From UHGV virus genome UHGV-0123446: DNA of 35,688 bases. One strand, written 5' to 3'. Made by a program: the position numbers and the translations under genes. This document shows positions 590 to 32,873 of this stretch, in pieces. Position 1 is the stretch's first letter. Each line of letters starts with the position of its first letter. The stretch is from a virus. The notes below the pieces were generated by a model that had not been told where the DNA came from, made no database searches, and was given only the letters and a program-made list of their open reading frames with translations.

Positions 590-616
590 ATAAATTTCAG
601 GCAACAAAAAACCCAT
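590..616. repeat. attL core: 27-bp sequence ataaatttcaggcaacaaaaaacccat, repeated exactly at 32847..32873
   Basis: Exact 27-bp direct repeat bracketing the prophage; integrase gene lies immediately inside this copy. Confidence 0.75.
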
Positions 617-635
617 TTATGTAAACGGGTTAATG

Positions 636-667
636 AAAACAATAAGTTAGAGTAAAAACAATAAGTT
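636..667. repeat. Two direct copies of aaaacaataagtt (636..648 and 655..667), candidate integrase arm-type binding sites
   Basis: 13-bp direct repeat 19 bp apart, between att core and int; arm-site role is inference. Confidence 0.35.
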
Positions 668-690
668 GGGTTGGTGGTCAGTGGTGGTTA

Positions 691-1743
691 TTACGGGGTA
701 ATGCCAACCGCTGCCGCCACTTTGTCGCCACTTGGCAGCGTTGCCAGAGGATTGAAACGGAGCGCCGTTTCCAGATGATCTGGTGCCAGATGTGCGTAAC
801 GCATAGTCATTTTTATATCGTGGTGTCCGAGAATTTTTTGTAAGGCGAGAATGTTTCCACCCGACATCATGAAGTGCGCCGCAAATGTATGGCGCAGAAC
901 GTGTGTGAGTTGACCGCGAGGGAGCACGATAGACGTTTTTTCCATCACGGATAAAAATTGAAAATAGCAGTCTGTAAAGAAATTGAACCCATCAAGCGCC
1001 ATGATCTCTTCGTAAAGCTCTTTACTGATAGGGATGCTTCTGTTTTTCTTCCCCTTCGTTCTGACAAAGGTAATTCGGTATTTGGTCACCTGTGAGCGGG
1101 TAAGATTTACGGCTTCACGCCAGCGTGCGCCTGTGCTTAAGCATATCTTAACTACCAGTGCCAGAATCGGGTCCTGACGTTTACAATCAGCCAGCAATTC
1201 AACAATCTGCTCATGGGTAAGCCATGCCATCTCTTTTTCTGCGATGGTGAATTTTCGCATGTTCTCCAGTGGGTTCGGATACGACCATTCGCCCAGGCGG
1301 GATAGTTCGCTAAAAACACTACTTAGATAGCTTTGCTCCAGGTTAATGGTGACCGGGCTTGCTCCTTTCTTCCATTTCTCGCTGAAGTAGATCTCACCTG
1401 TCAGGCGTTTATCTCGATAGTGGGCAAACATTTTAGAGGTGAGATCGGTTGCAAGGGGATTGCCCAGAGCGTCAACCATCAACAGCAATTTATCATAGAC
1501 ATGCTGCCCAGCGGTTAGAGATTTACCATGTAGTTTGAACCATAGCTCAACCACGTCTTTCAGTGTTCGACGATCCACTGATTCTCCCAGCCAGGGCTTT
1601 GCTTCGGTTTCTTCCATCGTATGGCGCTCAAAAGCCAGAGCTTCGCCTTTGGTGGCGAATTGTTTACGCACACGACGCCCACTACGTCCGGCGGGGTAAC
1701 ATTCGCAAAGCCATTTTCCTGTGGTGAGTTTTCGTACTGCCAT
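691..1743 (-). CDS. int: Phage integrase, tyrosine recombinase (P2/186 family); start taken at the internal ATG giving MAVRKLTTGKW
   Basis: C-terminal catalytic region with conserved R...HxxR...Y pattern (LTHVLRHTFAAHFMMSGGNILALQKILGHHDIKMTMRYAHL); adjacent to attL. Confidence 0.9.
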   Translation of the reverse strand: MAVRKLTTGKWLCECYPAGRSGRRVRKQFATKGEALAFERHTMEETEAKPWLGESVDRRTLKDVVELWFKLHGKSLTAGQHVYDKLLLMVDALGNPLATDLTSKMFAHYRDKRLTGEIYFSEKWKKGASPVTINLEQSYLSSVFSELSRLGEWSYPNPLENMRKFTIAEKEMAWLTHEQIVELLADCKRQDPILALVVKICLSTGARWREAVNLTRSQVTKYRITFVRTKGKKNRSIPISKELYEEIMALDGFNFFTDCYFQFLSVMEKTSIVLPRGQLTHVLRHTFAAHFMMSGGNILALQKILGHHDIKMTMRYAHLAPDHLETALRFNPLATLPSGDKVAAAVGITP

Positions 1744-1929
1744 AAAAAATGCCCTCCAATAGAGAGCATTTTTACTGTATGCATAACCAGTGTCAATGTA
1801 TGAAATCCTGCGACCATACATCTCACTGAAGCCATAATGAAGTTGGCTATTTTTTGCTATGTGAGTATGTGACTTTTGCGGTTAGCCTGCGGCTCATTGT
1901 TATATTAGGCGCAGATATAAAAGCAAAAT

Positions 1930-2121
1930 TTATCGCGAGTTTTTAGTACAGATTTTTTTTGATTTACTAATAGTTCCATCATTGCAAACGAACTTTCCAT
2001 CGGAGGTACAGTGAGAGACACCTCCCTTTTTCCCAGAACAAGGATAATTTTTAGCATAGGTAGTTAGTGGGTTTAATAACAAAGAGCATGATAAAACCAC
2101 AAAAAATACCTTACCAAGCAT
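1930..2121 (-). CDS. Small secreted cysteine-rich, lysine-rich protein (63 aa, predicted signal peptide), moron-like cargo between cI and int
   Basis: Hydrophobic N-terminal signal [23 protein letters not shown] then a 40-aa mature part with 4 Cys; strong SD (ggagg) upstream of the ATG; AT-rich relative to neighbours. Confidence 0.5.
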
Positions 2122-2136: not shown

Positions 2137-2712
2137 TTACCTAACGTACTTAATTGTTAAACTTATAATTTTCCCAATTATTTCAACATCTTCTATCTTG
2201 CACTCGAAGGCTCTGTTTCCACCTTCAACGAAGATTTTTCCACCGGGTAAACGAGTAATGTCGCGGATTGTTATTTCGCCATCAATACTTATTACCCATT
2301 TACCGTCACGTATATCATCAAATTCTTTATCACAAATAAATTCAGAATTGTTATCTGTGATGACAAAAGGTTTTTTAAACGTAGAGGGTAGAAATCCCTT
2401 ATCAAAAATATAAAAACCGTCTTCACGCAAGGCACCATCAGATAATACATATTTAGCAACTTCCATAGTATTTGTATTACCTGAAGTTTGCTTTGAACCA
2501 TGTCCGGTTGTGAGCCAATTAAGCGAGGTGCCCGTTTCAAGGGCGCACTGGATTACCCATTCTGCTGGGAATGAGTCACGCATGTAGCGTGTGGCGAGTG
2601 TACTTTTAGAGATTCCTAAATGATCGCACAACGCCTGTCGAGTTTTGAATCCATAAGCTTCTACCATGCGCTCTATAGCGCCTCGTCCGCCTTTCTCCAA
2701 ATTCATGGTCAC
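2137..2712 (-). CDS. cI: Prophage immunity repressor, phage 186 CI-like (191 aa, N-terminal HTH)
   Basis: Size and position (upstream of int, divergent from apl/cII); HTH-like segment TRQALCDHLGISKSTLATRYMR; resembles 186 CI rather than the ~99-aa P2 C. Confidence 0.7.
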   Translation of the reverse strand: MTMNLEKGGRGAIERMVEAYGFKTRQALCDHLGISKSTLATRYMRDSFPAEWVIQCALETGTSLNWLTTGHGSKQTSGNTNTMEVAKYVLSDGALREDGFYIFDKGFLPSTFKKPFVITDNNSEFICDKEFDDIRDGKWVISIDGEITIRDITRLPGGKIFVEGGNRAFECKIEDVEIIGKIISLTIKYVR

Positions 2713-2831: not shown

Positions 2832-3053
2832 ATGAGACCTAACATTTCAATCACTCTTACCACGCCTCATGTGACTATTGAACGCTATAGCGAGCTGACA
2901 GGGCTGTCCATCGATACCATCAATGACATGTTGGCTGACGGACGCCTTATCCGTCACCGTCTGCGCAAAGATAAAAAACGTGAAAAAGTGATGATCAACA
3001 TAGCAGCCATGACCGTTGATGCGCTTTCAGAATGCAATCTAAACCTTAATTAG
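2832..3053 (+). CDS. Apl/Cox-like small DNA-binding protein (excisionase / early repressor of lysogenic promoter)
   Basis: 73-aa basic protein, first gene of the rightward early operon, as in 186 apl / P2 cox. Confidence 0.5.
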
Positions 3054-3079
3054 TTCGATTCTGAAATACATCAGAGGCA

Positions 3080-3595
3080 TTGACCATGTTTGATTACCAA
3101 GTTTCCAAACATCCACATTTTGATGAAGCCTGTCGTGCATTCGCATTGCGCCACAACCTAGTGCAACTGGCAGAACGTGCAGGCATGAATGTGCAGATTC
3201 TGCGGAACAAGCTGAACCCAGCTCAACCTCATTTATTAACCGCACCAGAAATCTGGTTGCTTACCGATCTGACTGAAGATTCAACGCTGGTAGATGGCTT
3301 TCTGGCACAGATTCACTGCCTGCCATGTGTACCGATTAATGAGGTGGCAAAAGAGAAACTGCCGCATTACGTCATGAGTGCAACTGCAGAGATAGGGCGT
3401 GTCGCGGCAGGTGCGGTTTCTGGCGATGTAAAAACCAGTGCAGGCCGTCGTGATGCGATCAGCAGCATTAACTCTGTTACACGACTGATGGCGCTGGCTG
3501 CTGTTTCATTGCAGGCCAGTTTACAGGCTAATCCTGCGATGGCGAGTGCAGTTGATACCGTGACTGGCCTCGGTGCTTCATTCGGTTTGCTGTGA
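3080..3595 (+). CDS. CII-like transcriptional activator (phage 186 CII family)
   Basis: N-terminus [45 protein letters not shown] matches my recollection of 186 CII; about 170 aa; position after apl. Confidence 0.6.
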
Positions 3596-3602
3596 GGTGC
3601 TT

Positions 3603-3803
3603 ATGCTGACGAAAGAACCATCATTTGCATCGCTGCTGGTAAAACAAAGTCCGGCAATGCACTACGGTCACGGCTGGATCATGGGTGAGGATGGTAAACG
3701 CTGGCATCCGTGCCGTTCACAAGATGAATTGCTGGCAGAACTATCTACGAAAAAACGGGGGAACAAATGGCTATTGAAGGCGCTGCGGCGACTGTTCCAT
3801 TAA
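3603..3803 (+). CDS. Hypothetical early protein (66 aa from the internal ATG)
   Basis: ORF in the early operon with ATG preceded by gagg; function unknown. Confidence 0.4.
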   Translation: MLTKEPSFASLLVKQSPAMHYGHGWIMGEDGKRWHPCRSQDELLAELSTKKRGNKWLLKALRRLFH

Positions 3804-4409: not shown

Positions 4410-4636
4410 TGGCTGATGCAATGGATCTCGTACAGCAGCGCGTTGAAGAAGAACGCCAACGCCATATCCGTGCTGCCCGTGCCAAAACGCCGGGCGTGTC
4501 CCGCGTGCTTTGCGTTGAGTGTGAAGCGCCAATTCCGCCAGCACGCCGCCGTGCCATTCCGGGTGTGCAGCTTTGCATTACCTGTCAGGAAATCGCAGAG
4601 CTGAAAGGCAAACATTACAACGGAGGTGCTGTATGA
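4409..4636 (+). CDS. TraR/DksA-family C4 zinc-finger protein
   Basis: CVECEAPIPPARRRAIPGVQLCITCQ four-Cys motif typical of phage/plasmid TraR-like proteins; translationally coupled to flanking genes. Confidence 0.65.
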   Translation: MADAMDLVQQRVEEERQRHIRAARAKTPGVSRVLCVECEAPIPPARRRAIPGVQLCITCQEIAELKGKHYNGGAV

Positions 4637-5487
4637 GCACCATCCTGAAATGGGCAGGAAATAAAACCGCCATAATGTCCGAACTGAAAAAGCATCTTCC
4701 TGCTGGCCCGCGACTGGTTGAACCTTTCGCGGGTTCCTGTGCAGTGATGATGGAGACGGATTATCCCAGCTATCTTGTTGCGGATATTAATCCTGATTTA
4801 ATCAACCTCTATAAAAAGGTTGCTGCTGATTGTGAGGCGTTTATATCTCGTGCCAGAGCTTTATTTGAGGAAGCAAACAGGGAGGTGGCTTATTACAACA
4901 TAAGGCAGGAGTTTAATTACTCCACTGAAATTACTGATTTCATGAAAGCGGTATATTTCCTGTATCTCAATCGTCACGGTTACCGTGGTTTATGTCGCTA
5001 TAACAAGAGCGGGCATTTCAACATTCCCTACGGTAATTATAAAAATCCGTATTTCCCTGAAAAAGAAATTCGCGCATTTGCAGAGAAAGCCCAGCGGGCA
5101 ACGTTTATCTGCGCCAGCTTTGATGAAACGCTGGCGATGTTGAAGGTGGGGGATGTGGTGTATTGCGATCCGCCTTATGACGGTACGTTTTCCGGCTATC
5201 ACACTGATGGTTTCACTGAAGATGATCAGTATCACCTGGCATCCATTCTTGAACATCGGTCATCAGAAGGACATCCGGTCATTGTTTCTAACAGTAACAC
5301 GTCTTTGACCCGGTCCCTTTATCGTAATTTCACTCACCACTACATCAGGGCGAAACGCAGCATCGGCGTTGCAGCGGGGGAGGGAAAATTTGCAACAGAG
5401 ATGATTGCCACTAAATCTGCTAATTGGTTTAGTGCCGATTTTAGTAGGGGACGTGACTCTACTGTTATTTTCGGGGTGCAAGTGTGA
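4633..5487 (+). CDS. Orphan DNA adenine methyltransferase (Dam family, N6-adenine); ORF-track start 4573 is an extension
   Basis: N-terminal SAM-binding motif LKWAGNK...EPFAGSCAV and catalytic DPPY motif ([10 protein letters not shown]); no adjacent restriction endonuclease. Confidence 0.85.
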
Positions 5488-6314
5488 AAGAAATGCACCA
5501 CGGAATTCATCATTTCCATGGGACGCCTGTCTGGGGAAGTGCTGGCGACGTTCATCGTATTGCGGTGAGCGGAGCTGGCGCTTTCGTCTCCTATGTACGA
5601 CCAGATCAGATTGCGGCGTCCATTCAGCACGCTCAGGTCGTCGGCATTGATAACGGCGCATTTTCTGCATGGGTGCGTGGGCTAAAAATTAACTGGAGTG
5701 ATTTTTATAAATGGCTCCTGAACTATTACCACCATCCTAAGGTCGCTTTTTTTGTCATTCCTGATGTTGTGGACGGAGGTGAACGTGACAATGATGCCCT
5801 GATAAACGAAGTTCCGAAAATGTTCTACGGGAAGGCAACTCCCGTCTGGCATCTGCACGAGTCAATCGATCGGCTTATCGAGCTATGTCGTGAATGGCCT
5901 CGTGTCTGCTTTGGATCGTCTGGTGAATATGCGGCTATCAGAACTGCGCACTGGCATCGTCGTATGCAGGACGCTTTTGAAGCAATTTATTGCCGACACA
6001 ATTTCAAAACAGCTGTTCATGGTTTGCGCATGCTTGACGGTCGTGTGTTGGGAAATTACCCACTGGCGACTGCCGACAGTACAAATCTTGCCTGCAATGT
6101 CCCCAAATTTAATAGCAAATATCCTGAGCTGACGCGGGCTATTCAGGAGGCTGAGTATTCGCGCAATCTGACGGAAAAGGAGCTGAAAGCTGTCATTCTG
6201 AAAAACCGTTGCGCAATTTTAAAAGGTGCAATTGAAGCTGTTCGCCCACCTTCAGTTTCTGATTGGCTGTCGAATGGTTTGCAGCCTTCACAGCTCGAAC
6301 TGGAGATTGCGTAA
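5484..6314 (+). CDS. Uncharacterised protein (about 275 aa) translationally coupled to dam; function unknown
   Basis: GTG start overlaps the dam stop (GTGA), stop overlaps the gene A start (TAATG); no recognisable nucleotide-binding or zinc motif. Confidence 0.5.
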
Positions 6315-8686
6315 TGAACTACAGCTATTCCTGGAATGCTGAGAAAAAAGCAATCAATCCTTACGTAGAGACAGAAGAGCAATCTTCAGTTTCTGCGCTT
6401 TCAAACCTGATCGCTCTGTACGCTGCCGATAACGAGCAGGAACAGCTGCGCCGCGAGGCACTGAGTGATCAGGTCTGGGAGCGTTATTTCTTTAATGAAT
6501 CCCGTGATCCTGTCCAGCGCGAAATGGAGCAGGATAAGCTCATTAGTCGGGCAAAGCTGGCGCATGAGCAGCAGCGTTTTAATCCAGATATGGTCATTCT
6601 GGCGGACGTCAATGCCCAGCCTTCCCATATCAGCAAGCCGCTGATGCAACGTATTGAATACTTCAGCAGCCTGGGCAGGCCAAAGGCTTATTCCCGCTAT
6701 TTGCGTGAGACGATTAAGCCATGTCTGGAACGGCTGGAGCATGTACGCGACTGTCAGCTATCCACTTCTTTTCGCTTTATGGCAAGCCATGAAGGGCTGG
6801 ACGGCCTGCTGATCCTGCCTGAAATGAGTCAGGATCAGGTGAAACGCCTGTCCACCCTGGTAGCTGCGCATATGAGCATGTGCCTTGATGCAGCTTGTGG
6901 CGATTTGTATGTCACCGATGACGTTAAGCCAGAAGAAATCCGCAAGACATGGGAAAAGGTGGCAGCGGAAACCCTGCGTCTGGATGTCATCCCGCCTGCG
7001 TTTGAGCAACTCCGCCGGAAAAGAAACCGCCGTAAACCCGTGCCCTATGAACTCATTCCGGGTTCGCTGGCGCGTATGTTGTGCGCTGACTGGTGGTACC
7101 GGAAATTATGGAAGATGCGTTGCGAATGGCGGGAAGAGCAGTTGCGTGCTGTCTGCCTGGTCAGCAAAAAAGCATCTCCCTATGTCAGCTATGAAGCCGT
7201 GATGCATAAACGTGAGCAGCGCCGTAAGTCGCTGGAGTTTTTTCGTTCTCATGAACTGGTGAACGAAGACGGCGACACGCTGGACATGGAGGATGTGGTA
7301 AACGCCAGCAGCAGCAACCCTGCGCATCGCCGCAATGAGATGATGGCCTGTGTTAAAGGCCTGGAGCTTATCGCGGAAATGCGCGGTGACTGCGCCGTTT
7401 TCTACACCATCACCTGTCCGTCACGTTTCCATTCCACGCTAAATAATGGCAGGCCCAACCCAACTTGGACAAATGCGACGGTAAGACAAAGCAGTGATTA
7501 TCTGGTCGGCATGTTTGCTGCATTTCGTAAGGCGATGCACAAAGCCGGATTGCGGTGGTATGGCGTGCGGGTGGCTGAGCCGCATCATGACGGTACAGTT
7601 CACTGGCACCTGTTGTGTTTTATGCGCAAAAAAGACCGCCGCGCCATCACTGCATTACTGCGTAAGTTTGCCATCCGTGAAGACCGCGAGGAACTGGGCA
7701 ATAACACTGGGCCGCGCTTTAAGTCTGAGTTGATTAACCCGCGCAAAGGTACGCCAACAAGCTACATCGCGAAATACATCAGTAAGAACATTGACGGGCG
7801 TGGTCTGGCTGGCGAGATCAGCAAGGAAACGGGTAAATCTCTGCGTGATAACGCTGAATACGTTAATGCCTGGGCGTCTCTGCATCGTGTTCAGCAATTC
7901 CGCTTCTTTGGCATTCCGGGGCGTCAGGCTTACCGTGAACTGCGATTGCTGGCTGGTCAGGCGGCAAGGCAACAGGGTGACAAAAAAGCAGGTGCGCCGG
8001 TACTGGATAACCCGCGCCTTGATGCCATTCTGGCTGCAGCTGATGCTGGTTGCTTTGCCACCTACATCATGAAGCAGGGCGGCGTACTGGTTCCCCGTAA
8101 ATATCACCTCATCAGAACCGCTTATGAAATCAACGAAGAGCCGACCGCCTATGGCGATCACGGTATTCGTATTTATGGCATCTGGTCACCCATTGCAGAG
8201 GGCAAGATCTGCACTCATGCAGTGAAGTGGAAAATGGTTCGTAAAGCCGTTGACGTTCAGGAGGCGGCAGCCGACCAGGGCGCTTGCGCCCCTTGGACTC
8301 GTGGCAATAACTGTCCCCTTGCTGAAAGCTTGTACCAACAAGGGAAAGACAAATCAGCTGATGGGGATACCAGAACGGATATCACCCGCATGGATGACAA
8401 GGAATTGCACGATTACCTGCACAGTATGAACAAAAAAGAGCGCCGGGAACTGGCTGCAAGGTTACGCCTGGTGAAACAGAAACGGCGTAGAGACTACAAA
8501 CAGCGAATTACAGATCATCAGCGACAGCAGCTCGTCTATGAACTGAAGTCCAGAGGATTTGATGGCAGCGAGAAAGAGGTCGATTTACTCCTTCGCGGTG
8601 GCAGTATTCCGTCAGGAGCAGGCCTGCGTATCTTCTATCGGAACCAGCGTTTGCAGGAAGATGATAAGTGGCGGGATCTGTATTAA
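6314..8686 (+). CDS. A: Replication initiation protein gpA (rolling-circle replication endonuclease), P2/186 family
   Basis: About 790 aa, last gene of the early operon; start ATG overlaps the upstream stop; ORF-track start 6263 is an extension. Confidence 0.85.
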
Positions 8687-8778: not shown

Positions 8779-8798
8779 TACTGTAAATATAAACAGTG
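8779..8798. promoter_or_regulatory. LexA (SOS) box taCTGTaaatataaACAGtg
   Basis: CTGT-N8-ACAG with AT-rich spacer, about 40 bp upstream of the 8839 ORF and the DinI-like gene. Confidence 0.6.
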
Positions 8799-8838
8799 GT
8801 TATGTATACAGTATTGCTTTGGTGTCATAGGAGGAAAG

Positions 8839-9027
8839 ATGCAGGACTATTTTTTGGAGTCTTTGAAGCTCCAGCGCATTGATTTTTTTCTTAAGCTTGT
8901 AGCGGCTAGTGAGTGTAGTGATGAAGAGAAGGGGCTGGCCCTGCAGTGGGTTTCTGAACTGACAGATGAACTCATGGCAAAAATCAGAACCCATGAATAC
9001 AACCGCTCAATGGATGTCATCAGCTGA
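8839..9027 (+). CDS. Small protein (62 aa) downstream of the LexA box; possible N-terminal part or partner of a Tum-like antirepressor
   Basis: aggagg SD just upstream of the ATG; ends 10 bp before the DinI-like ORF in a different frame. Confidence 0.4.
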   Translation: MQDYFLESLKLQRIDFFLKLVAASECSDEEKGLALQWVSELTDELMAKIRTHEYNRSMDVIS

Positions 9028-9037
9028 GGTGACTTTT

Positions 9038-9271
9038 ATGCGCATTGAAATAATGATCGATAAAGAGCAGAAGATTAGCCAGTCTACACTGGACGCCCTT
9101 GAATCCGAGCTTTACCGCAATCTGCGCCCCCTGTATCCCAAAACGGTAATTCGTATCCGCAAAGGTAGCTCTAACGGTGTGGAACTGACCGGACTGCAAC
9201 TGGACGAAGAAAGAAAACAAGTGATGAAAATTATGCAGAAGGTGTGGGAAGACGACAGCTGGCTGCATTAA
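9038..9271 (+). CDS. DinI-like protein (77 aa)
   Basis: MRIEIMIDKEQKISQSTLDALESELYRNLRPLYPKTVIRIRKGSSNGVELTGLQ...VWEDDSWL resembles E. coli DinI (MRIEVTIAK...) along its length; LexA box upstream. Confidence 0.7.
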   Translation: MRIEIMIDKEQKISQSTLDALESELYRNLRPLYPKTVIRIRKGSSNGVELTGLQLDEERKQVMKIMQKVWEDDSWLH

Positions 9272-9475: not shown

Positions 9476-9494
9476 GGCGTGGCGGGGATACGAG
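9476..9494. other. Candidate cos site (cohesive-end sequence)
   Basis: GGCGTGGCGGGGATACGAG: the first 13 nt match my recollection of the 186 cohesive end (GGCGTGGCGGGGAAAGCAT; P2 GGCGAGGCGGGGAAAGCAC); lies in the A-to-Q interval where cos is expected. Confidence 0.4.
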
Positions 9495-9504: not shown

Positions 9505-9533
9505 CTGACAGTTTTCAGAAAAGTATATATAAT
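9505..9533 (+). promoter_or_regulatory. Near-consensus sigma70 promoter (CTGACA, 17-bp spacer, TATAAT) for the 9571 gene
   Basis: -35 at 9505..9510 and -10 at 9528..9533; gene start at 9571. Confidence 0.45.
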
Positions 9534-9570
9534 CGCCTGAAAGATCTATACGTGCAGTGGAAATCATCAA

Positions 9571-10605: not shown

Positions 10606-10610
10606 ATAAC

Positions 10611-13442: not shown

Positions 13443-13488
13443 GGCACAAACCTACAGCCTTGAATGAAGGCTTTCCCCGCCTGCGGTT

Positions 13489-19392: not shown

Positions 19393-19396
19393 TCTT

Positions 19397-23285: not shown

Positions 23286-23306
23286 TTTAGCTATATGGAG
23301 TGAAAA

Positions 23307-24324: not shown

Positions 24325-24857
24325 GCAGCCCTCACAATGTAATTAAATGAAATATTACGTGGGCGTGTCTCTGCTGCACCGACAATACTGGTACTCAACC
24401 CCGTCGCTGTTCGTTTGTTATTTTTATTTCCTTCAATCAGACAGTTGTAATCATCATTACCAATTAACGAATTAGTGGCATCAATACCGTCCGGGGACAA
24501 GGCATTAGTTGTAGAACTTAAAGTCAGCATCTCGTCTGAACTTGGAAGATTTTTTAATGGTATTTCATTGCGAGAAATACCCGCGTAAAAAAAGGACTCA
24601 TGCCTGTGCGCTTCAAAAGAGTCATCCTGAAGACTTAGCAAGGCACGTCCCGCATCCACACCACGCCCGTCATCCCAGCCACGAATAAACTCACCACGTA
24701 AATCAGGCAATTTATTTGTCGGATAAGCCTTTGCCAGTTCCGGGTATTCTTCAGCAGAAAAAGCGGCACCGTTACATTTCAGCCAGCCTGTTGGCGGAGT
24801 GGCGGAAGGCCACGGAACAGGCACGCCAACGGGTAATGCCGAACCTTCTCCCAAACC
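24321..24857 (-). CDS. Alternative tail-fibre C-terminal segment (promoterless; would be fused to the H constant part after inversion)
   Basis: Begins at the hix-like site with the same GLGE junction as H; contains the LPVGVPVPWPS...GWLKCNG...LPDLRG motif typical of Mu/P1/e14-type fibre variable parts. Confidence 0.7.
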   Translation of the reverse strand, partial: GLGEGSALPVGVPVPWPSATPPTGWLKCNGAAFSAEEYPELAKAYPTNKLPDLRGEFIRGWDDGRGVDAGRALLSLQDDSFEAHRHESFFYAGISRNEIPLKNLPSSDEMLTLSSTTNALSPDGIDATNSLIGNDDYNCLIEGNKNNKRTATGLSTSIVGAAETRPRNISFNYIVRAA

Positions 24858-24871
24858 AACGTTTAAGGAAA
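24846..24871. other. hix/gix-like invertase recombination site (right)
   Basis: ttctcccaaaccaacgtttaaggaaa; inverted relative to the site at 22921..22946; about 50 bp upstream of the invertase gene. Confidence 0.55.
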
Positions 24872-24920
24872 TGCAGAGGTAACAGCTAACTGGCATCATC
24901 TCCGGTTTTTATTCAGGGGG

Positions 24921-25493
24921 ATGATCATGCTTATTGGCTATGTACGCGTGTCAACAAATGACCAGAACACCGATTTGCAACGTAATGCACTGAACTGCGC
25001 GGGATGTGAGCGGATTTTTGAGGACAAAATCAGTGGCACTAAGTCCGACAGACCGGGGCTGAAAAAACTACTCAGGACACTATCGGCAGGAGACACGCTG
25101 GTTGTCTGGAAGCTGGACAGGTTGGGACGCAGTATGCGGCATCTTGTTACGCTGATAGAAGAGTTGCGCCAGCGTGGCGTGAATTTCCGAAGCCTGACTG
25201 ACAGTATTGATACCAGTACCCCAATGGGCCGTTTCTTTTTTCATGTCATGGGTGCCCTGGCTGAAATGGAACGCGAACTGATAGTTGAACGTACCAGGGC
25301 GGGGATTGCTGCAGCTCGCGACAAAGGCAGAGTAGGTGGACGCCGTCCTAAGTTGACCACCGAACAGTGGGCACAGATTGGACGTTTACTAGAGGCCGGA
25401 GAATCAAGACAGCGTATTGCACTGATTTTTGATGTGGGCGTTTCTACCATTTATAGAAAATTTCCGGCAAATAAGAGCAGTGAATCCCCCTGA
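24921..25493 (+). CDS. Serine DNA invertase (Hin/Gin/Pin/Cin family)
   Basis: N-terminal resolvase catalytic domain IGYVRVSTNDQ...VVWKLDRLGRS...MGRFFFHVMGALAEMERELIVERT and C-terminal HTH; closely resembles Hin. Confidence 0.9.
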   Translation: MIMLIGYVRVSTNDQNTDLQRNALNCAGCERIFEDKISGTKSDRPGLKKLLRTLSAGDTLVVWKLDRLGRSMRHLVTLIEELRQRGVNFRSLTDSIDTSTPMGRFFFHVMGALAEMERELIVERTRAGIAAARDKGRVGGRRPKLTTEQWAQIGRLLEAGESRQRIALIFDVGVSTIYRKFPANKSSESP

Positions 25494-25635: not shown

Positions 25636-26808
25636 ATGGCTCAGGATTACCACCACGGGGTGCGCGTTGTTGAAATCAACGAAGGCACCCGATCCATTAC
25701 CACGGTGAGCACCGCCATCGTGGGTATGGTCTGCACGGGCGATGATGCCGATGCAAAAATGTTTCCTCTTAATAAACCCGTGCTGATCACTGATGTGCTG
25801 ACTGCCAGCGGTAAAGCGGGTGAGTCCGGCACGCTGGCCCGTTCGCTGGATGCCATCGCTGACCAGGCAAAACCCGTGACCGTTGTTGTACGTGTGCCGC
25901 AGGGTGAAACGGAAGAAGAAACCACGACCAATATCATCGGCGCAGTGACTGCTGAAGGTAAAAAAACAGGCATGAAAGCCCTGTTATCTGCCCAGACACA
26001 GCTCGGCGTTAAACCGCGCATTCTCGGCGTGCCAGGTCACGATAACAAAGCCGTTGCTACTGAGTTGCTGAGTGTGGCGCAAAGCCTGCGTGGGTTTGCT
26101 TACCTGTCAGCGTATGGCTGCAAGACGGTGCAGGAGGCGATCACTTACCGTGAAAACTTCAGCCAGCGCGAAGGAATGCTGATCTGGCCCGACTTTACTG
26201 GCTGGGACACGGTGCTGAATGCCGAAGCAACGGCATATGCCACCGCCCGTGCGCTTGGTCTGCGTGCCAAAATTGATGAGCAGACTGGGTGGCACAAAAG
26301 CCTGTCCAACGTGGGCGTGAACGGTGTCACCGGAATTTCTGCAGATGTTTTCTGGGATCTGCAGGACCCGGCAACCGATGCAGGTCTGCTGAACCAGAAC
26401 GACGTCACCACGCTTGTGCGTAAAGACGGTTTCCGCTTTTGGGGTTCCCGCTGCCTGAGTGATGACCCGCTCTTTGCCTTCGAAAACTACACCCGCACGG
26501 CGCAGGTGCTGACGGACACAATGGCAGAAGCGCACATGTGGGCGGTGGACAAACCGCTTAACCCGTCGCTGGCCCGCGACATTATCGAAGGTATCCGCGC
26601 CAAAATACGCAGCCTGGTCAGTCAGGGCTATCTCATTGGTGGTGATTGCTGGCTGGATGAGTCGGTGAACGACAAAGACACGTTGAAAGCCGGAAAACTC
26701 ACCATCGACTATGACTACACGCCAGTGCCGCCACTTGAAAATCTGATGCTGCGCCAGCGCATCACCGATCAGTACCTGGTGAATTTTGCCAGCCAGGTCA
26801 GCGCGTAA
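25636..26808 (+). CDS. FI: Contractile tail sheath protein gpFI
   Basis: 390 aa, first gene of the FI-FII-E-T-U-D operon. Confidence 0.9.
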
Positions 26809-26817
26809 GGGGGATAC

Positions 26818-27333
26818 ATGGCATTACCACGCAAGTTAAAACACCTGAACCTGTTTAACGACGGGAATAACTGGCAGGGGATCGTTGAGTCGCTGACGCT
26901 GCCGAAATTCACCCGCAAATATGAGAAGTATCGCGGCGGCGGAATGCCGGGTGCAGTGGATGTGGATCTGGGGCTTGATGACAGTGCGCTGGACACAGAA
27001 TTTTCCATTGGTGGTACTGAACTGCTGCTGTTTAAACAGATGGGCAAAGCCACGGTGGATGGCATCCAGTTGCGCTTTACCGGCTCTATCCAGCGTGATG
27101 ATACCGGGGAAGTGCAGGCCGTGGAGCTTGTGGTGCGTGGACGTCACAAAGAAGTGGATTCCGGCGAGTGGAAGACGGGCGAAAGCAACACCACTAAAGT
27201 GACCAGTACCAACAGCTACGCGAAGCTGACTATCAATGGTGAGGTGCTCTATGAAGTGGACCTTATCAACATGGTGGAAATTGTGGACGGTGTGGACTTG
27301 ATGGAAGCGCACCGCAACGCCCTCGGCCTCTGA
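26818..27333 (+). CDS. FII: Tail tube protein gpFII
   Basis: 171 aa immediately after the sheath gene. Confidence 0.9.
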   Translation: MALPRKLKHLNLFNDGNNWQGIVESLTLPKFTRKYEKYRGGGMPGAVDVDLGLDDSALDTEFSIGGTELLLFKQMGKATVDGIQLRFTGSIQRDDTGEVQAVELVVRGRHKEVDSGEWKTGESNTTKVTSTNSYAKLTINGEVLYEVDLINMVEIVDGVDLMEAHRNALGL

Positions 27334-27387
27334 TGTATCTGAACTGCGCGGAATGCCGCGCCAGAACCCAATTTACAGGACAGCAAA

Positions 27388-27690
27388 ATGAGCGATAAGC
27401 AGACTGAAAAGACCATTCTACTGGATACCCCCATCATGCGTGGTAAAACTGAAATCACCGAAATTGTGCTGCGTAAACCGCAGTCCGGTGCGCTGCGCGG
27501 TACACGCCTGCAGGCCATTATGGATATGGATGTGAACGCGATGATGACCGTGATCCCCCGCATCTCCAGCCCGGCGCTGACTGCACAGGAAATTGCAGAG
27601 ATGGACCCGGCAGATCTCACTGCCATGTCGGTTGAGGTTGTCACTTTTTTGTTGAAGAAGTCGGTGCTTGCCGGTTTACCGACAGCCTGA
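27388..27690 (+). CDS. E: Tail assembly chaperone gpE
   Basis: 100 aa; contains the slippery heptamer near its 3' end. Confidence 0.8.
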   Translation: MSDKQTEKTILLDTPIMRGKTEITEIVLRKPQSGALRGTRLQAIMDMDVNAMMTVIPRISSPALTAQEIAEMDPADLTAMSVEVVTFLLKKSVLAGLPTA

Positions 27691-27824
27691 TGGTTGACGA
27701 TCTGGTGGCAGATATCGCCACCATTTTTCACTGGCCGCCATCCGTTACTGACGTTATGCCGCTGACCGAAGTGCTGGAATGGCGGTATAAAGCGATTCAG
27801 AGAAGCGGGGCTAACGATGAGTGA
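27388..27824 (+). CDS. gpE+E' fusion produced by programmed -1 ribosomal frameshift at T_TTT_TTG (27645..27651)
   Basis: Canonical slippery heptamer in the zero frame of E; the -1 frame stays open to a TGA at 27822..27824 overlapping the T start. Confidence 0.65.
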
Positions 27825-30800
27825 TAATAACCTGCGCCTGCAGGTCATTCTTAATGCGGTTGACAAACTTACCCGCCCATTCCGTGCTGCACAGGCCAGT
27901 TCGAAAGAGCTGGCTGGCGCAATTCAGAATACCCGAAACAGCCTCAAAGAACTGAATAAGCAGGCTGGCAGAATTGATGAATTTCGCAAGATGCGCTCGC
28001 AACTAGCCATAACAGCCAACAACCTGAACGCAGCCCGCGAAGAGGCGGCAAAACTCGCCACACAATTTGCTGCCACTAACAGGCCAACCGCCGCGCAGGC
28101 AAAGTTATTCAGTCAGGCCAAAACACGAGTACAGGAACTTCAGCAGACCTATAACGGCTTGTTGGGGGCGGTCCAGAGACAACGTCAGGCACTTAAAGAA
28201 TCAGGGATTGATACCAGACAACTCAGTAGTGCCCAGCGAGAACTTAAGAAAAATGCTGAAGAAACAAGGCAGGCACTGGAGGGCCAGCAAAAAGCACTTA
28301 AACGTCTGGGTGAACAACAGGCACGGATGAACGCTGCCAGAGAACAATACTCAAGACGGCTTGAAGTGCGCGATCGCATCGCAGGAGCCGGAGCCACTAC
28401 CACGGCTGCAGGGCTGGCAATGGGTGCGCCAGTGATGGCGGCAGTAAAAAGCTATACCAGCATGGAAGATGCCATGAAAGGTGTGGCAAAGCAGGTCAAT
28501 GGTCTGCGTGACGATAATGGCAACCGCACTGCACGCTTTTATGAAATGCAGGATGCCATCAAGGCTGCCAGCGAACAGTTGCCGATGGAAAACGGTGCGG
28601 TGGACTTCGCTGCACTGGTTGAAGGTGGTGCGCGCATGAACGTCGCAAACCCTGACGACAGCTGGGAAGACCAGAAACGTGACCTGCTGGCCTTCGCCAG
28701 TACGGCAGCAAAGGCGGCAACAGCCTTTGAGCTGCCAGCGGATGAACTGTCAGAAAGTCTGGGGAAAATCGCCCAGCTCTACAAAATACCTACCCGCAAT
28801 ATTGAACAGCTCGGCGATGCGCTGAACTATCTGGATGATAACGCCATGTCGAAAGGGGCGGACATCATTGATGTGATGCAACGTCTGGGCGGTGTGGCTG
28901 ACCGTCTGGATTATCGTAAAGCGGCGGCACTGGGTTCCACCTTTCTGACACTGGGCGCTGCGCCGGAGGTTGCAGCCAGTGCAGCAAACGCGATGGTGCG
29001 TGAATTGTCCATTGCCACCATGCAAAGCAAGAGTTTCTTTGAAGGGATGAATCTGCTGAAACTCAATCCTGAAGTGATTGAAAAGCAGATGACGAAGGAT
29101 GCGATGGGAACTATCCAGCGTGTGCTGGAGAAGGTGAACGCACTGCCGCAGGACAAGCGTCTGTCTGCCATGACCATGTTGTTTGGTAAAGAGTTTGGTG
29201 ATGATGCGGCGAAACTGGCAAACAACCTTCCGGAACTGCAGCGCCAGCTAAAACTGACAGCGGGCAATGATGCGCTCGGTTCCATGCAGAAAGAATCCGA
29301 CATCAACAAAGACTCACTTTCTGCTCAGTGGTTGCTGGTCAAAACCGGAGCGCAGAACACCTTCAGCAGCCTGGGCGAAACGCTGCGCCAGCCGCTGATG
29401 GATATTCTGTACACGGTGAAAAGCATCACGGGGGCGTTGCGCCGCTGGGTGGAAGCTAATCCGGAACTGACAGGCACACTGATGAAAGTAGCGGCTGTTG
29501 TGGCTGCGGTTACAGTAGGCCTCGGCACCTTAGCGGTGGCGCTGGCTGCAGTGCTGGGGCCGCTGGCAGTGATCCGTCTGGGATTCTCTGTGCTGGGTAT
29601 CAAAACGTTACCTTCTGTTACGGCAGCAGTAACTCGAACCAGCAGCGCGTTGTCCTGGTTGGCTGGCGCACCACTGGCACTGCTGCGACGCGGGCTTGCT
29701 TCATCGGGCAACGCCGCAGGTTTACTTACTGCGCCGTTGTCGTCTTTACGCCGCACGGCATCACTGACGGGAAATGTCCTGAAAACTGTAGCAGGTGCGC
29801 CGGTTGCACTTTTGCGGTCTGGATTATCCGGTTTACGTGCTGTTGCTGTGATGTTTATGAATCCTCTGGCGGTACTGCGCGGTGGACTGGTCGCCGCAGG
29901 CACGGTGCTGCGAGTACTGGCATCTGGTCCACTGGCGATGCTGCGCGTTGCCCTGTATGCCGTATCTGGTCTGTTAGGTGCTCTGCTCAGCCCGATAGGT
30001 CTTGTGGTTACTGCACTGGCGGGCGTGGCGCTGGTTGTCTGGAAATACTGGCAACCCATCACCGCATTTCTTGGTGGCGTGGTGGAAGGATTCAAAGCGG
30101 CGGCAGGTCCCGTCAGTGCAGCATTCGAACCGCTTAAGCCCGTGTTCCAGTGGATTGGCGACAAAGTACAGGCGTTGTGGGGCTGGTTTACTGATCTGCT
30201 GACGCCCGTTAAGTCGACCTCTGCCGAACTGCAGAGTGCAGCGGCAATGGGGCGGCGATTCGGAGAGGCACTGGCGGAAGGGCTGAATATGGTCATGCAT
30301 CCGCTGGACTCCCTGAAATCCGGCGTTTCCTGGTTGCTGGAGAAACTTGGCATTGTCAGTAAAGAGGCCGCAAAGGCAAAACTGCCGGAAAGCGTGACGC
30401 GTCAGCAACCTGCGACGGTGAATGCAGACGGTAAAGTGATGATGCCATCGGGTGGTTTTCCGTCATGGGGATATGGCTTTGCGGGGATGTATGACAGCGG
30501 CGGGTATATCCCGCGCGGGCAGTTTGGCATCGTCGGTGAAAACGGGCCGGAAATTGTTAACGGCCCGGCAAATGTGACCAGCCGGAGAAATACAGCTGCA
30601 CTGGCTGCCGTTGTTGCCGGAATGATGGGCGTTGCTGCCGCGCCAGCAGAGCTTCCACCGTTGCACCCTTTGGCACTTCCCGCGAAAGGTGGAGAAGCAA
30701 TTGTGAGTCGCGCAGCCACTGTGCCGCTCGTTCAACGGATTGAGGCACCGACGCAGATCATCATTCAGACGCAGCCAGGACAAAGTGCGCAGGATATTGC

Positions 30801-30894
30801 GCGGGAGGTGGCACGCCAGCTTGATGAACGTGAACGCAGGCTGAAGGCAAAAGCCAGGAGTAACTACAGCGATCAGGGGGGATACGACGCATGA
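27817..30894 (+). CDS. T: Tail tape measure protein gpT
   Basis: 1025 aa, Ala/Leu-rich with coiled-coil N-terminal part and repeated hydrophobic segments; downstream of E/E'. Confidence 0.9.
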   Translation: MSDNNLRLQVILNAVDKLTRPFRAAQASSKELAGAIQNTRNSLKELNKQAGRIDEFRKMRSQLAITANNLNAAREEAAKLATQFAATNRPTAAQAKLFSQAKTRVQELQQTYNGLLGAVQRQRQALKESGIDTRQLSSAQRELKKNAEETRQALEGQQKALKRLGEQQARMNAAREQYSRRLEVRDRIAGAGATTTAAGLAMGAPVMAAVKSYTSMEDAMKGVAKQVNGLRDDNGNRTARFYEMQDAIKAASEQLPMENGAVDFAALVEGGARMNVANPDDSWEDQKRDLLAFASTAAKAATAFELPADELSESLGKIAQLYKIPTRNIEQLGDALNYLDDNAMSKGADIIDVMQRLGGVADRLDYRKAAALGSTFLTLGAAPEVAASAANAMVRELSIATMQSKSFFEGMNLLKLNPEVIEKQMTKDAMGTIQRVLEKVNALPQDKRLSAMTMLFGKEFGDDAAKLANNLPELQRQLKLTAGNDALGSMQKESDINKDSLSAQWLLVKTGAQNTFSSLGETLRQPLMDILYTVKSITGALRRWVEANPELTGTLMKVAAVVAAVTVGLGTLAVALAAVLGPLAVIRLGFSVLGIKTLPSVTAAVTRTSSALSWLAGAPLALLRRGLASSGNAAGLLTAPLSSLRRTASLTGNVLKTVAGAPVALLRSGLSGLRAVAVMFMNPLAVLRGGLVAAGTVLRVLASGPLAMLRVALYAVSGLLGALLSPIGLVVTALAGVALVVWKYWQPITAFLGGVVEGFKAAAGPVSAAFEPLKPVFQWIGDKVQALWGWFTDLLTPVKSTSAELQSAAAMGRRFGEALAEGLNMVMHPLDSLKSGVSWLLEKLGIVSKEAAKAKLPESVTRQQPATVNADGKVMMPSGGFPSWGYGFAGMYDSGGYIPRGQFGIVGENGPEIVNGPANVTSRRNTAALAAVVAGMMGVAAAPAELPPLHPLALPAKGGEAIVSRAATVPLVQRIEAPTQIIIQTQPGQSAQDIAREVARQLDERERRLKAKARSNYSDQGGYDA

Positions 30895-31376
30895 TGATGG
30901 TACTGGGATTGTACGTGTTTATGCTGCGCACCGTTCCGTATCAGGAACTGCAGTATCAACGCAGCTGGCGACATGCGGCAAACAGCCGGGTAAACCGTCG
31001 TCCGTCCACGCAGTTTCTGGGACCGGAAAACGACATGCTGACGCTTTCCGGTGTTCTTATGCCGGAGATAACAGGCGGCAGGCTGTCGTTGTTGGCACTG
31101 GAGCAGATGGCAGAACAGGGGAAAGCATGGCCCCTGATTGAAGGCAGCGGCACGATTTACGGCATGTATGTGATTGAGGGACTGAATCAGACTAAAACGG
31201 AGTTTTTCCGCGACGGTATGCCGCGCAGGATTGAGTTCACCCTTTCGCTAAAACGGGTGGATGAATCCCTGTCCGATATGTTCGGTGATCTCAGTACTCA
31301 ACTGAATAATCTGCAGGACACGGCAACGTCTGCCTTAAGCGATATCAGTAAAACGGTGGGAGGGCTGCTGTCGTGA
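30891..31376 (+). CDS. U: Tail protein gpU
   Basis: 161 aa, overlapping stop/start with T and D. Confidence 0.8.
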   Translation: MMMVLGLYVFMLRTVPYQELQYQRSWRHAANSRVNRRPSTQFLGPENDMLTLSGVLMPEITGGRLSLLALEQMAEQGKAWPLIEGSGTIYGMYVIEGLNQTKTEFFRDGMPRRIEFTLSLKRVDESLSDMFGDLSTQLNNLQDTATSALSDISKTVGGLLS

Positions 31377-32473
31377 ATTTCAGCTCTGAACTGCTTAACA
31401 AAGGCAACAAAACTCCCGCATTCAGCATCAGTATTGAGGGGAAGGATATCACCACTGTGCTGGATAACCGCCTGATGAGTCTGACGTTGACGGACAATCG
31501 GGGCTTTGAAGCAGACCAGCTTGATCTGGAGCTGGACGACGCCGACGGAAAAATCGTGCTGCCGCGCCGTGGTGCGGTCATCACGCTGGCGCTGGGCTGG
31601 AAGGGGCAGCCGCTTTTCCCGAAAGGGGCATTCACGGTGGATGAAATTGAACACACTGGCGCACCGGACCGCCTGACTATCCGGGCGCGAAGTGCTGATT
31701 TTCGGGAAACGCTGAATACCCGCCGTGAAAAGTCGTGGCACAAGACCACCGTTGGGGAAGTGGTAAAGGAAATAGCTGCGCGGCACAAACTGAAGATGGC
31801 ACTGGGTAAAGACCTGTCTGATAAACCCGTGGAGCATATAGACCAGACTAATGAGAGTGACGGCAGTTTTCTGATGCGGCTGGCGCGACAGTACGGTGCT
31901 ATTGCGTCGGTGAAAAATGGCAATCTGTTATTCATCCGGCAGGGACAGGGTAAAAGCGCCAGCGGTAAACCACTACCGGTGATCACTATCACACGTAAGG
32001 ACGGCGACAGTCACCGCTTTACCCTGGCGGATCGCGGAGCTTACACGGGTGTAATTGCCAGCTGGTTGCATACCCGCGAACCCGCGAAGAAAGAAAGCAC
32101 CACGGTGAAGCGTAAGCGCAGGACTAAGAAGCAGAAGAAAGAGCCGGAAGCGAAGCAGGGCGATTACCTGGTGGGTACGGATGAAAACGTGCTGGTACTT
32201 AATCGCACTTATGCCAACCGGAGCAACGCCGAACGAGCGGCGAAAATGCAGTGGGAACGCCTGCAACGCGGAGTTGCGTCATTCTCGCTACAACTGGCGG
32301 AAGGGCGGGCAGATCTCTACACGGAAATGCCAGTGAAAGTCAGTGGCTTTAAACAGCCGATAGATGATGCGGAATGGACCATTACGACTCTGACGCATAC
32401 CGTCAGCCCGGATAACGGTTTTACGACCAGTCTGGAGCTTGAAGTGAGGATTGATGATTTCGAAATGGAATGA
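31373..32473 (+). CDS. D: Tail protein gpD
   Basis: 366 aa, last gene of the tail operon. Confidence 0.85.
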   Translation: MNFSSELLNKGNKTPAFSISIEGKDITTVLDNRLMSLTLTDNRGFEADQLDLELDDADGKIVLPRRGAVITLALGWKGQPLFPKGAFTVDEIEHTGAPDRLTIRARSADFRETLNTRREKSWHKTTVGEVVKEIAARHKLKMALGKDLSDKPVEHIDQTNESDGSFLMRLARQYGAIASVKNGNLLFIRQGQGKSASGKPLPVITITRKDGDSHRFTLADRGAYTGVIASWLHTREPAKKESTTVKRKRRTKKQKKEPEAKQGDYLVGTDENVLVLNRTYANRSNAERAAKMQWERLQRGVASFSLQLAEGRADLYTEMPVKVSGFKQPIDDAEWTITTLTHTVSPDNGFTTSLELEVRIDDFEME

Positions 32474-32563
32474 TTCTTCGCAATGGAGAACTTTTAAGTT
32501 TGCAAAATGGAATAATGCGGTATCATTATTGTGAATTTAGCAAAAATGGGGAGAACTCGAAAA

Positions 32564-32782
32564 ATGATGATTTGCCCACTGTGTGGAAGTGCCGCCCATA
32601 CTCGCAGCAGTTTTCAGGTATCTTCATTGACCAAAGAGCGTTACAACCAGTGCCAGAACATTAACTGCAGCCATACTTTTGTTACCCATGAAACTTTTGT
32701 TCGTTCGATTGCAACGCCAAAAGAGTCAAATCCGGTTCAGCCGCATCCAATGAAATCAGGACAGGTGGCGCTCTCTCTTTGA
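32564..32782 (+). CDS. ogr: Ogr-type zinc-finger late-gene transcriptional activator (start taken at the internal ATG, MMICPLCG)
   Basis: CPLCG...CQNINCSHTF four-Cys motif and overall similarity to P2 Ogr (CPLCQ...CQNVNCSATF); about 72 aa. Confidence 0.8.
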   Translation: MMICPLCGSAAHTRSSFQVSSLTKERYNQCQNINCSHTFVTHETFVRSIATPKESNPVQPHPMKSGQVALSL

Positions 32783-32846
32783 CGCTGCCGCCATTTTGTC
32801 GCCATCGTTAAAAAACAGTGCTTCTAACATCATGATTTTAAAAGGC

Positions 32847-32873
32847 ATAAATTTCAGGCAACAAAAAACCCAT
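32847..32873. repeat. attR core (27-bp copy of the attL core)
   Basis: Exact repeat of 590..616. Confidence 0.75.

Follow-up and report, generated by a model that had tools for sequence, protein, structure and literature searches.

That rybB is an attachment site of P2-like prophages is already published: the rybB-integrated P2-like E. coli prophages Rybb*B (with retron Ec86), Rybb*W and Rybb*Cr were described by Archer et al. 2011 (PMC3032704), and rybB was reported as defence hotspot #29 by Hochhauser et al. 2023 (PMC10121019). Klebsiella phage 4LV2017, the type of the genus Elveevirus, also sits at rybB. Phage 186 (Eganvirus) integrates in a tRNA-Ile gene and directs int and cI leftward and apl, cII and fil rightward. 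P2 (Peduovirus) uses other att sites, has a short C repressor and possesses no CII, Fil or DinI/Tum genes. RybB itself is a key envelope-stress regulator, expressed in dependence on sigma-E and repressing omp mRNAs with the help of Hfq.

The window analysed here, a stretch of 35,688 nt (UHGV virus genome UHGV-0123446), holds a 32.3-kb P2-family prophage bracketed by an exact 27-bp direct repeat, ATAAATTTCAGGCAACAAAAAACCCAT, with rcdA on one side and ybjL on the other. We are highly confident that this is a complete temperate Peduoviridae phage that has integrated at the 3' end of rybB, an sRNA gene located between rcdA and ybjL. The two copies of the core, at 590-616 (attL) and 32847-32873 (attR), were recovered by exact repeat search exactly where the initial annotation had placed them; by our own arithmetic about 3.5e-8 such 27-bp pairs are expected by chance in 35.7 kb. 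An empty-site allele, set beforehand as a check, was found in NZ_CP033762, where a single core copy lies between rcdA and ybjL, which are convergent with 174 bp between them. Joining window positions 1-616 to 32874-end reproduces this allele, apart from two rcdA substitutions and a 1-nt difference in an A-run near 32993. Among the matches listed, of more than 4,000 genomes without the junction, the homology of unoccupied genomes breaks exactly at the core edges, ending at 615/616 on the left and beginning at 32847 on the right. The 27-bp core and these breaks bear out the claim of an intact-looking prophage inserted by site-specific recombination between rcdA and ybjL. A tRNA or tmRNA gene was dropped as the target, since neither gene type was found within the window.

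Occupation of this site is common. The left junction was detected in 1,067 and the right junction in 1,115 of 5,426 complete E. coli genomes, i.e. about 20% are occupied. As a prophage at a published site in about one fifth of complete E. coli genomes, the finding is therefore real but ordinary. With its core in RybB and its rcdA and ybjL flanks, the element belongs to the rybB-integrating P2-like prophages of hotspot #29; compared with these prophages as described in the papers, its cargo is a Swarozyc/DUF4062 homologue instead of a retron.

The main weight of our analysis lies in a correction of the target. Judged from the sequence, this is an sRNA gene, at the 3' end of rybB, and not a protein-gene terminator, and RybB is kept intact. 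The Rfam model RF00110 matched the minus strand at 32860-32938 over model positions 1-79 of 79, scoring 105.3 bits where the gathering score is 40. The whole gene was set to 32860..32941 (minus strand), the +1 at 32941 being placed by eye, unscored, at the known RybB 5' end (GCCACUGC). Its terminator consists of a stem at 32905-32896/32878-32869 and a U-tract at 32868-32863. It was missed by the terminator scan because its loop exceeds the limit of the scan, and was identified by folding together with Rfam. The core covers the last 14 nt of RybB, corresponding to model positions 66-79. Its minus-strand sequence is ATGGG-TTTTTT-GTTGCCTGAAATTTAT, in which ATGGG closes the RybB terminator stem, the six T are the U-tract, and the remaining 16 nt lie downstream.

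With this composition, a mechanism can be proposed. The phage tyrosine integrase recombined the 27-bp core of attP with an attB of the same sequence. Since the phage brings these bases along, attR rebuilds an unchanged rybB, promoter included; the phage copies the 3' half of the terminator, so RybB is preserved. At attL, the core bases complete a phage-encoded hairpin (610..631, minus strand; AACCCGTTTACATAAATGGGTT followed by TTTTGTTGCC, the core T-tract), which was detected by the terminator scan, folds with -9.2 kcal/mol and probably serves as the int terminator. As the same core bases are present at attR and attL, both transcripts ending in the core would retain an intrinsic terminator after integration. 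Phages entering tRNA and tmRNA 3' ends follow the same logic, which has been documented before for rybB. Which bases were exchanged within the core can be narrowed by comparison with Klebsiella phage 4LV2017, with which the shared core is only 19 bp, pointing to the inner 19 bp CAGGCAACAAAAAACCCAT. Excision would use Int and the Apl-like protein.

The att arms fit this scheme. In phage KP12, the predicted attP, in the order ogr, core, int (…TTTTAAAAGGC-core-TTATGTAAACGGG…), is found as one uninterrupted stretch of 800 bp with 98.5% identity; the record, a ‘partial sequence’ clone whose taxonomic label is odd, shows a contiguous attP but not a characterised virion. Int arm-type motifs matching the 186 consensus YAYCGCCAYTY occur on the plus strand in the P' arm, as the tandem TGCCGCCACTT TGTCGCCACTT (712..733), and in the P arm, as TGCCGCCATTT TGTCGCCATCG (32786..32807). 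Two copies of AAAACAATAAGTT in direct orientation (636..667, plus strand), located between the core and int, are candidate Apl/IHF-type accessory sites, in the position of the Apl sites annotated at 186 attP.

Regarding gene content, the initial annotation had described a complete set from int through ogr, and this holds: the structural genes all align near full length to their P2 and 186 homologues. The tyrosine integrase (691..1743, minus strand; Pfam Int_N and Phage_integrase) shares 54% identity with 186 Int and 35% with P2 Int. The plus-strand region 4573..8686 encodes a Dam methylase (PF02086), a 276-aa ORF (5484-6314) and the rolling-circle replication protein A, which is 31-35% identical to P2 and 186 A and matches phrog_91, ‘nicking at origin of replication’ (E = 3e-287). 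The 276-aa ORF had no Pfam, NCBIfam or PDB match and bears only a PHROG label of doubtful meaning. The cos site, GGCGTGGCGGGGATACGAG, lies at 9476..9494 (plus strand); over its first 13 nt it is identical to 186 cos, and the sequence upstream aligns as well. By tblastn against P2 and 186, Pfam and PHROGs, the head, lysis, tail-completion, baseplate and tail-fibre genes follow in P2 order at 10642..23747 (Q, P, O, N, M, L, X, holin, lysozyme, LysA/B/C, R, S, V, W, J, I, H, G). Sheath, tube, E/E', tape measure, U, D and ogr (about 32564-32782) lie on the plus strand at 25636..32782 (tblastn, Pfam), with the E/E' slippery site TTTTTTG at 27645-27651. The family arrangement Q-P / O-N-M-L-X-lysis-R-S / V-W-J-I-H-G / FI-FII-E-E'-T-U-D, then ogr, was thus recovered by tblastn, the last gene encoding an Ogr/Delta zinc-finger activator (Ogr_Delta, PF04606), alongside a P2/186-type cos and a rolling-circle A protein as in Peduoviridae.

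The lysogeny region is of the 186 type, as had been proposed. The CI repressor (2137..2712, minus strand) has two domains, PF07022 and PF16452, and is 33% identical to 186 CI; tblastn gave no match between CI and P2 C. The early lytic genes for an Apl/Cox-type excisionase-repressor (phrog_575, Cox-like excisionase), CII and Fil follow on the plus strand at 2832..3803, CII and Fil being 68% and 81% identical to their 186 counterparts by tblastn. An SOS module on the plus strand (8781..9271) begins with a LexA box (8781-8796), the sole CTGT-N8-ACAG in the window, and continues with a 62-aa ORF (8839-9027; phrog_698) and a DinI-like gene (9038-9271; DinI, PF06183) sharing 41% identity with the C-terminal part of 186 Tum. 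For the N-terminal, antirepressor part of Tum no counterpart was detected, and the 62-aa ORF had no tblastn match at 1e-3, so that SOS inducibility is suggested only by the LexA box. The prophage would remain inducible through this LexA-controlled operon.

Beside cos, the plus strand carries a cargo cassette (9505..10641) composed of a promoter-like site (11/12 match), a gene with a DUF4062 domain (9571-10605; PF13271) and a terminator hairpin with a 15-bp stem. Its GC content is 34.8%, compared with 52% for the prophage. Homology to other prophages ends about 10 bp past cos, and the strong hairpin closes the cassette. By its full-length match to KpSwz (PDB 10wc, E = 6.6e-69 in the PDB sequence search), the cargo gene is identified as a Swarozyc defence homologue, with an N-terminal DUF4062 domain that has the catalytic Glu and a C-terminal auxiliary domain like that of KpSwz. 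The alignment pairs residues 1-341 with residues 2-324 of the KpSwz chain, and Glu81 falls on chain residue 82, which is taken to be E97 in the 16-C construct numbering of the preprint. PADLOC (2023) returned no match for the gene. At this cos-adjacent position the homologue is rare, occurring in only 7 of the 5,426 complete genomes. Work of Dodd and Egan (1996, Virology 219:115, cited in PMC6868368) reportedly showed that in 186-related prophages with the retrons Ec67 and Ec86 foreign DNA replaces the stretch from cos to a transcription terminator; the foreign DNA here likewise lies between cos and a terminator, and the type of cargo differs. KpSwz and a homologue from Enterobacteriaceae/E. 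coli are reported to act by portal-activated NAD+ depletion and abortive infection (bioRxiv 10.64898/2026.05.01.722283). Swarozyc was described only in 2026, and the cassette adds a further case of P2-family prophages as exchangeable carriers of anti-phage defence.

Such cargo raises the question of whether the prophage only looks intact and is in fact a defective or non-inducible, domesticated defence-gene carrier. The defence cassette aboard, the Tum antirepressor domain that tblastn did not detect and the fact that intactness is known from sequence alone are in line with this. Against it, every essential gene of the P2 family has its full length, cos is intact, as are the frameshift site and the two att arms, and near-identical genomes have been deposited as phages, one of them with a joined attP. 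We consider a defective element unlikely, while giving it more weight than the other alternatives, and retain the reading of a complete temperate phage.

The consequences for the host were then considered at the left flank. The ORF of rcdA (50..586, plus strand; a TetR-family regulator), annotated under this name in all matching RefSeq genomes, ends at 586, and the core starts 3 bp on, at 590, in agreement with the initial annotation. When the site is empty, rcdA and rybB are convergent, about 20 nt separate the rcdA stop from the RybB 3' end, and the RybB hairpin lies just beyond the stop; the prophage puts 32 kb between the two, and rcdA now converges on int. Insertion could in this way alter host regulation, in that rcdA would lack a strong hairpin, transcription would run antisense into int, and RcdA levels, and with them biofilm and curli, would change. 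The folding results point in this direction: on the plus strand, the empty site shows a hairpin of -22.1 kcal/mol (z = -3.2) 27 nt beyond the rcdA stop, compared with only a weak phage hairpin of -5.5 kcal/mol (z = -0.4) at attL, and the next plus-strand terminator-like site lies as far as 791-805. On the other side, a U-tract follows neither of these plus-strand hairpins, so neither is a canonical rcdA terminator, and the insertion is present in about 20% of genomes. A regulatory change of this kind appears improbable to us, and a host-side regulatory cost or benefit of occupying the rybB site slightly more so. If true, RcdA (biofilm/curli) output or int expression could change in the approximately 20% of E. 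coli that are lysogenic at rybB.

The identity of the hairpin at the right flank requires a comment. The initial annotation had the attR copy overlapping the terminator of ybjL (33019..34704, minus strand; an aspartate:alanine antiporter by genome matches). The overlap itself was reproduced, as the core overlaps a minus-strand hairpin and T-tract of -23.3 kcal/mol (z = -3.1), and the assignment was revised to the rybB terminator. A ybjL terminator with no separate gene would agree with the fact that this is the first strong hairpin and T-tract past the ybjL stop, and with the terminator scan, which showed no other candidate in 32500-33100; ybjL transcripts may therefore also end at the RybB hairpin. 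This reading is very improbable given that the 79 nt up to the T-tract fit the RybB covariance model end to end (105 vs 40 bits) and that a putative sigma-E-type promoter lies just upstream (32947..32974, minus strand; GAACTT, 16 nt, TCTTAA), read by eye with no tool score and compared with the established sigma-E consensus. Furthermore, a Klebsiella record has nearly the same sequence over this stretch, which is what a conserved sRNA would show, and two papers name rybB as the site (PMC3032704, PMC10121019). Integration in rybB remains our reading. As rybB sits between rcdA and ybjL, the host genes, said to be adjacent and convergent, are convergent (NZ_CP033762) and not strictly adjacent.

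By ICTV convention, phages belong to one genus when their genome-wide nucleotide similarity is 70% or more. Expressed as blastn coverage times identity, which approximates a VIRIDIC-type measure and is not the official tool, the similarity is 77.1% to 4LV2017, 16.6% to 186 and 16.3% to P2. By this approximation the prophage falls within Elveevirus, and nucleotide comparison identifies 4LV2017 as its nearest classified relative, with a 186-like regulatory layout. Nucleotide identity to 4LV2017, whose relatives include KP12, the Kp48xx series and Escherichia phage vB_EcoM-813R9, is 95.8% over 80% of the prophage. In 4LV2017, the att arms are the same, RybB is found at the right end, and in our own coordinate comparison most ORF lengths, including most structural genes, equal the annotated ones, H and G being slightly different. 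Replacements affect five segments, namely 1802-2817 (the immunity region), 5409-6388, the tail-fibre tip and invertase region (22947-25634), part of the tape measure and the cos-proximal cargo, which in 4LV2017 is a retron St85-family effector and polymerase gene. The prophage family is common to Escherichia and Klebsiella at an orthologous site.

With 186, the prophage shares the directions of the lysogeny genes, a DinI-like gene within a LexA-controlled operon that follows gene A, a similar cos and a similar Int arm-type motif; it differs in genome similarity, integration site and the Tum N-terminal domain, not found here by tblastn. With P2 it shares the structural gene order, the Ogr activator, the E/E' -1 frameshift and the 27-bp length of the att core. 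The initial annotation had called the element a P2/186 hybrid. A recombinant joining a 186 lysogeny module to P2 structural genes would explain why homologues of CI, CII, Fil and the DinI-like gene exist in 186 but not in P2, yet per-gene tblastn and whole-genome blastn rule it out and leave it practically no likelihood, as nucleotide similarity is about 16% to each parent and 77% to 4LV2017, and the structural proteins are no nearer P2 than 186. By tblastn, these are 36-70% identical and about equally far from both (capsid 59% and terminase 63% to each; sheath 70% to 186 vs 68% to P2), within 25-81% for the proteins overall. Since 186 itself has the P2 structural gene order, this order is no sign of a hybrid.

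A further observation concerns the tail fibres. An 18-nt inverted repeat, 94% complementary, with predicted crossover sites at 22930-22947 and 24845-24862, marks an invertible tail-fibre segment (22930..25493). It includes minus-strand genes for an alternative fibre tip and for fibre assembly (Caudo_TAP, Collar) and a serine invertase (24921-25493; Resolvase and HTH_7), whereas in 186 an inversion crossover site survives only as a relic and an invertase is lacking. From the crossover repeats and the invertase, a tail-fibre switch is predicted.

The exact 27-bp direct repeat ATAAATTTCAGGCAACAAAAAACCCAT, of which about 3.5e-8 pairs are expected by chance in 35.7 kb according to our arithmetic, brackets the prophage at 590-616 and 32847-32873 of the window. 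On the left, this core begins 3 bp past the end of rcdA (position 586); on the right lie ybjL (33019-34704, minus strand) and then ybjM. An unoccupied allele was found in E. coli FDAARGOS_536, where rcdA and ybjL are convergent and separated by 174 bp with a single copy of the core. Joining window positions 1-616 to 32874-end reproduces this allele, the only differences being two rcdA substitutions and an additional A near 32993. The rcdA-int junction was detected in 1,067 of 5,426 complete E. coli genomes and the ogr-ybjL junction in 1,115, so that about one fifth of them have a prophage at this site. Among the matches listed, genomes without a junction lose homology on the left at 615/616 and regain it on the right at 32847, exactly at the core edges. 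Repeat, flanks and homology breaks confirm the placement between rcdA and ybjL made in the initial annotation, and the single-core allele provides the uninterrupted site that it had proposed for comparison.

The main value of the analysis is a corrected target, rybB. Folding of the minus strand from 32915 to 32850 gave a hairpin of -23.3 kcal/mol followed by UUUUUUGUU. When the entire window was scanned against Rfam, the single match was RybB (RF00110; 32860-32938, minus strand), aligned across the full model at 105.3 bits (gathering score 40). Directly 5' of it are GAACTT, 16 nt, TCTTAA and then GCCACUGC. We take GCCACUGC to be the known RybB 5' end and, by the established sigma-E consensus (not a tool score), GAACTT-16 nt-TCTTAA to be the sigma-E-type promoter of rybB. 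The core covers the last 14 nt of this sRNA gene (32860-32941, minus strand), namely 5 nt from the 3' arm of the stem, then the U-tract and GUU, and extends a further 13 nt downstream of the gene. Lysogen and empty site are identical across 32847-32992, and therefore rybB and its promoter are rebuilt unchanged at attR, the right junction. The overlap of the attR core with a terminator hairpin and T-tract, as first described, stands; its assignment to ybjL does not, because the hairpin is the terminator of rybB. Since a terminator scan found no other terminator-like structure on the way from the ybjL stop to this hairpin, ybjL transcripts may end there too.

In all RefSeq E. coli records returned, rybB was absent from the annotated features under the match. 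Anyone relying on annotation thus overlooks the sRNA, and this probably explains why the site resembles an ordinary rcdA-ybjL intergenic region. The rybB-integrated prophage is real and is an ordinary member of a class already known, as rybB has been published as an attachment site. For P2-type prophages of E. coli W, B and Crooks, 'rybB ncRNA' is listed as the place of insertion, and the copy in E. coli B carries retron Ec86 (Archer et al. 2011, PMC3032704). Defence hotspot #29 has Felsduovirus-type prophages, inserted in rybB, as its only occupants (109 genomes), with up to two defence systems each at dedicated positions (Hochhauser et al. 2023, PMC10121019).

At attL, the left junction, a phage-encoded hairpin, AACCCGTTTACATAAATGGGTT (631-610, minus strand), lies 60 nt beyond the int stop. 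The end of its 3' arm is the core ATGGGTT and its tail is the core T-tract; we infer that it is the int terminator. The terminator of attP, the phage site before integration, would then have a 3' half identical to that of rybB, and recombination would leave an intrinsic terminator on both transcripts. Each arm carries tandem motifs that fit YAYCGCCAYTY, the arm-type consensus of 186 Int (712-733 and 32786-32807), and AAAACAATAAGTT occurs twice between core and int, at the position of the Apl sites in 186, whose role these copies may share. The predicted attP (ogr, core, int) is contiguous in the record of Klebsiella phage KP12 (800-bp match, 98.5% identity), with one core mismatch, G-to-A (KP12 record 670-700). 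Klebsiella phage 4LV2017 (genus Elveevirus), deposited in prophage form, shares the att arms and, at its right end, also carries a complete RybB (103 bits). Its attL and attR have only CAGGCAACAAAAAACCCAT in common, 19 bp (4LV2017 record 1-30 and 33420-33445), and strand exchange must therefore fall inside those 19 bp. Core identity between attP and the empty chromosomal site is 27 bp in E. coli and only 19 bp in Klebsiella (4LV2017); a single phage lineage, ~96% identical in nucleotide sequence, occupies rybB in both genera.

Integration does change the 3' context of rcdA. On the plus strand, the empty site has a hairpin of -22.1 kcal/mol (z = -3.2) just beyond the rcdA stop, compared to only -5.5 kcal/mol (z = -0.4) at attL, where the next terminator-like site is at 791-805, within int. 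Neither hairpin has a U-tract downstream on that strand, and about one fifth of genomes have this arrangement; a real regulatory effect of the insertion on rcdA seems unlikely.

All P2 structural and lysis genes were found, in P2 order and with near full-length alignment to P2 and 186, and most ORF lengths equal those of annotated 4LV2017 genes in our coordinate comparison. The alignment of the cos site (9476-9494) with that of 186 extends into the upstream context, and the E/E' slippery site TTTTTTG is intact; the prophage is thus intact-looking, as initially described. The label of a P2/186 hybrid was not supported: the structural proteins are equally far from both phages (capsid 59% and terminase 63% identical to each, sheath 70% to 186 vs 68% to P2), and blastn coverage x identity was 16.6% to 186 and 16.3% to P2, versus 77.1% to 4LV2017.

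The layout of the lysogeny region is indeed 186-like, with CI domains, a Cox/Apl-like protein, CII, Fil, a LexA box and a DinI-like gene. CI (PF07022 and PF16452) is 33% identical to its 186 counterpart, CII 68% and Fil 81%. The perfect LexA box (8781-8796), the sole CTGT-N8-ACAG in the window, opens a plus-strand SOS operon (8781-9271) with a 62-aa ORF (phrog_698) followed by a DinI-like gene of its own (77 aa), whose product shares 41% identity with the C-terminal portion of 186 Tum; 186 has one 146-aa Tum at this position. No N-terminal antirepressor portion of Tum was detected here, the 62-aa protein having no detectable similarity to it, and SOS induction is therefore plausible but unproven; the 62-aa protein may be an antirepressor. 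A conserved 63-aa ORF lies between int and cI (1930-2121, minus strand; phrog_6000; NCBIfam PRK10040.1-2, 'hypothetical protein'). As 4LV2017 has another hypothetical gene there (349 aa) and also a longer CI, this interval is one more variable spot.

Directly after cos lies a plus-strand cargo cassette (9505-10641; GC 34.8% vs 52% for the prophage), equipped with a promoter-like site of its own (11/12 match) and a terminator with a 15-bp stem. Its product, a 344-aa DUF4062 protein without a match in PADLOC 2023, gives a full-length alignment with KpSwz (PDB 10wc, E = 6.6e-69), an NADase of Swarozyc, a portal-activated defence system described in 2026. From this alignment we take Glu81 to be at the position of the catalytic E97 of KpSwz. 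If the protein senses phage portals like KpSwz, the portal made by the prophage itself must not activate it. Only 7 of the 5,426 complete genomes have the cassette; homology in the remaining genomes among the listed matches stops ~10 bp past cos.

A 276-aa ORF (5484-6314, plus strand) follows the Dam methylase gene and precedes replication gene A, inside a segment (5409-6388) that differs from 4LV2017. It had no match in Pfam, NCBIfam, PADLOC or PDB, its sole match being phrog_887, labelled 'queuine tRNA-ribosyltransferase'. Finally, the tail-fibre region contains an inversion switch of the Mu-G/P1-C type (22930-25493). Its 18-nt crossover sites, TTCTCCCAAACCAA(G/C)GT, stand in inverted orientation at 22930-22947 and 24845-24862. 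The minus strand encodes an alternative fibre tip (24321-24899) and an assembly gene (23719-24324), and a serine invertase gene lies at 24921-25493. In the case of 186 there is a relic crossover site only, and 4LV2017 is without the entire invertible segment.
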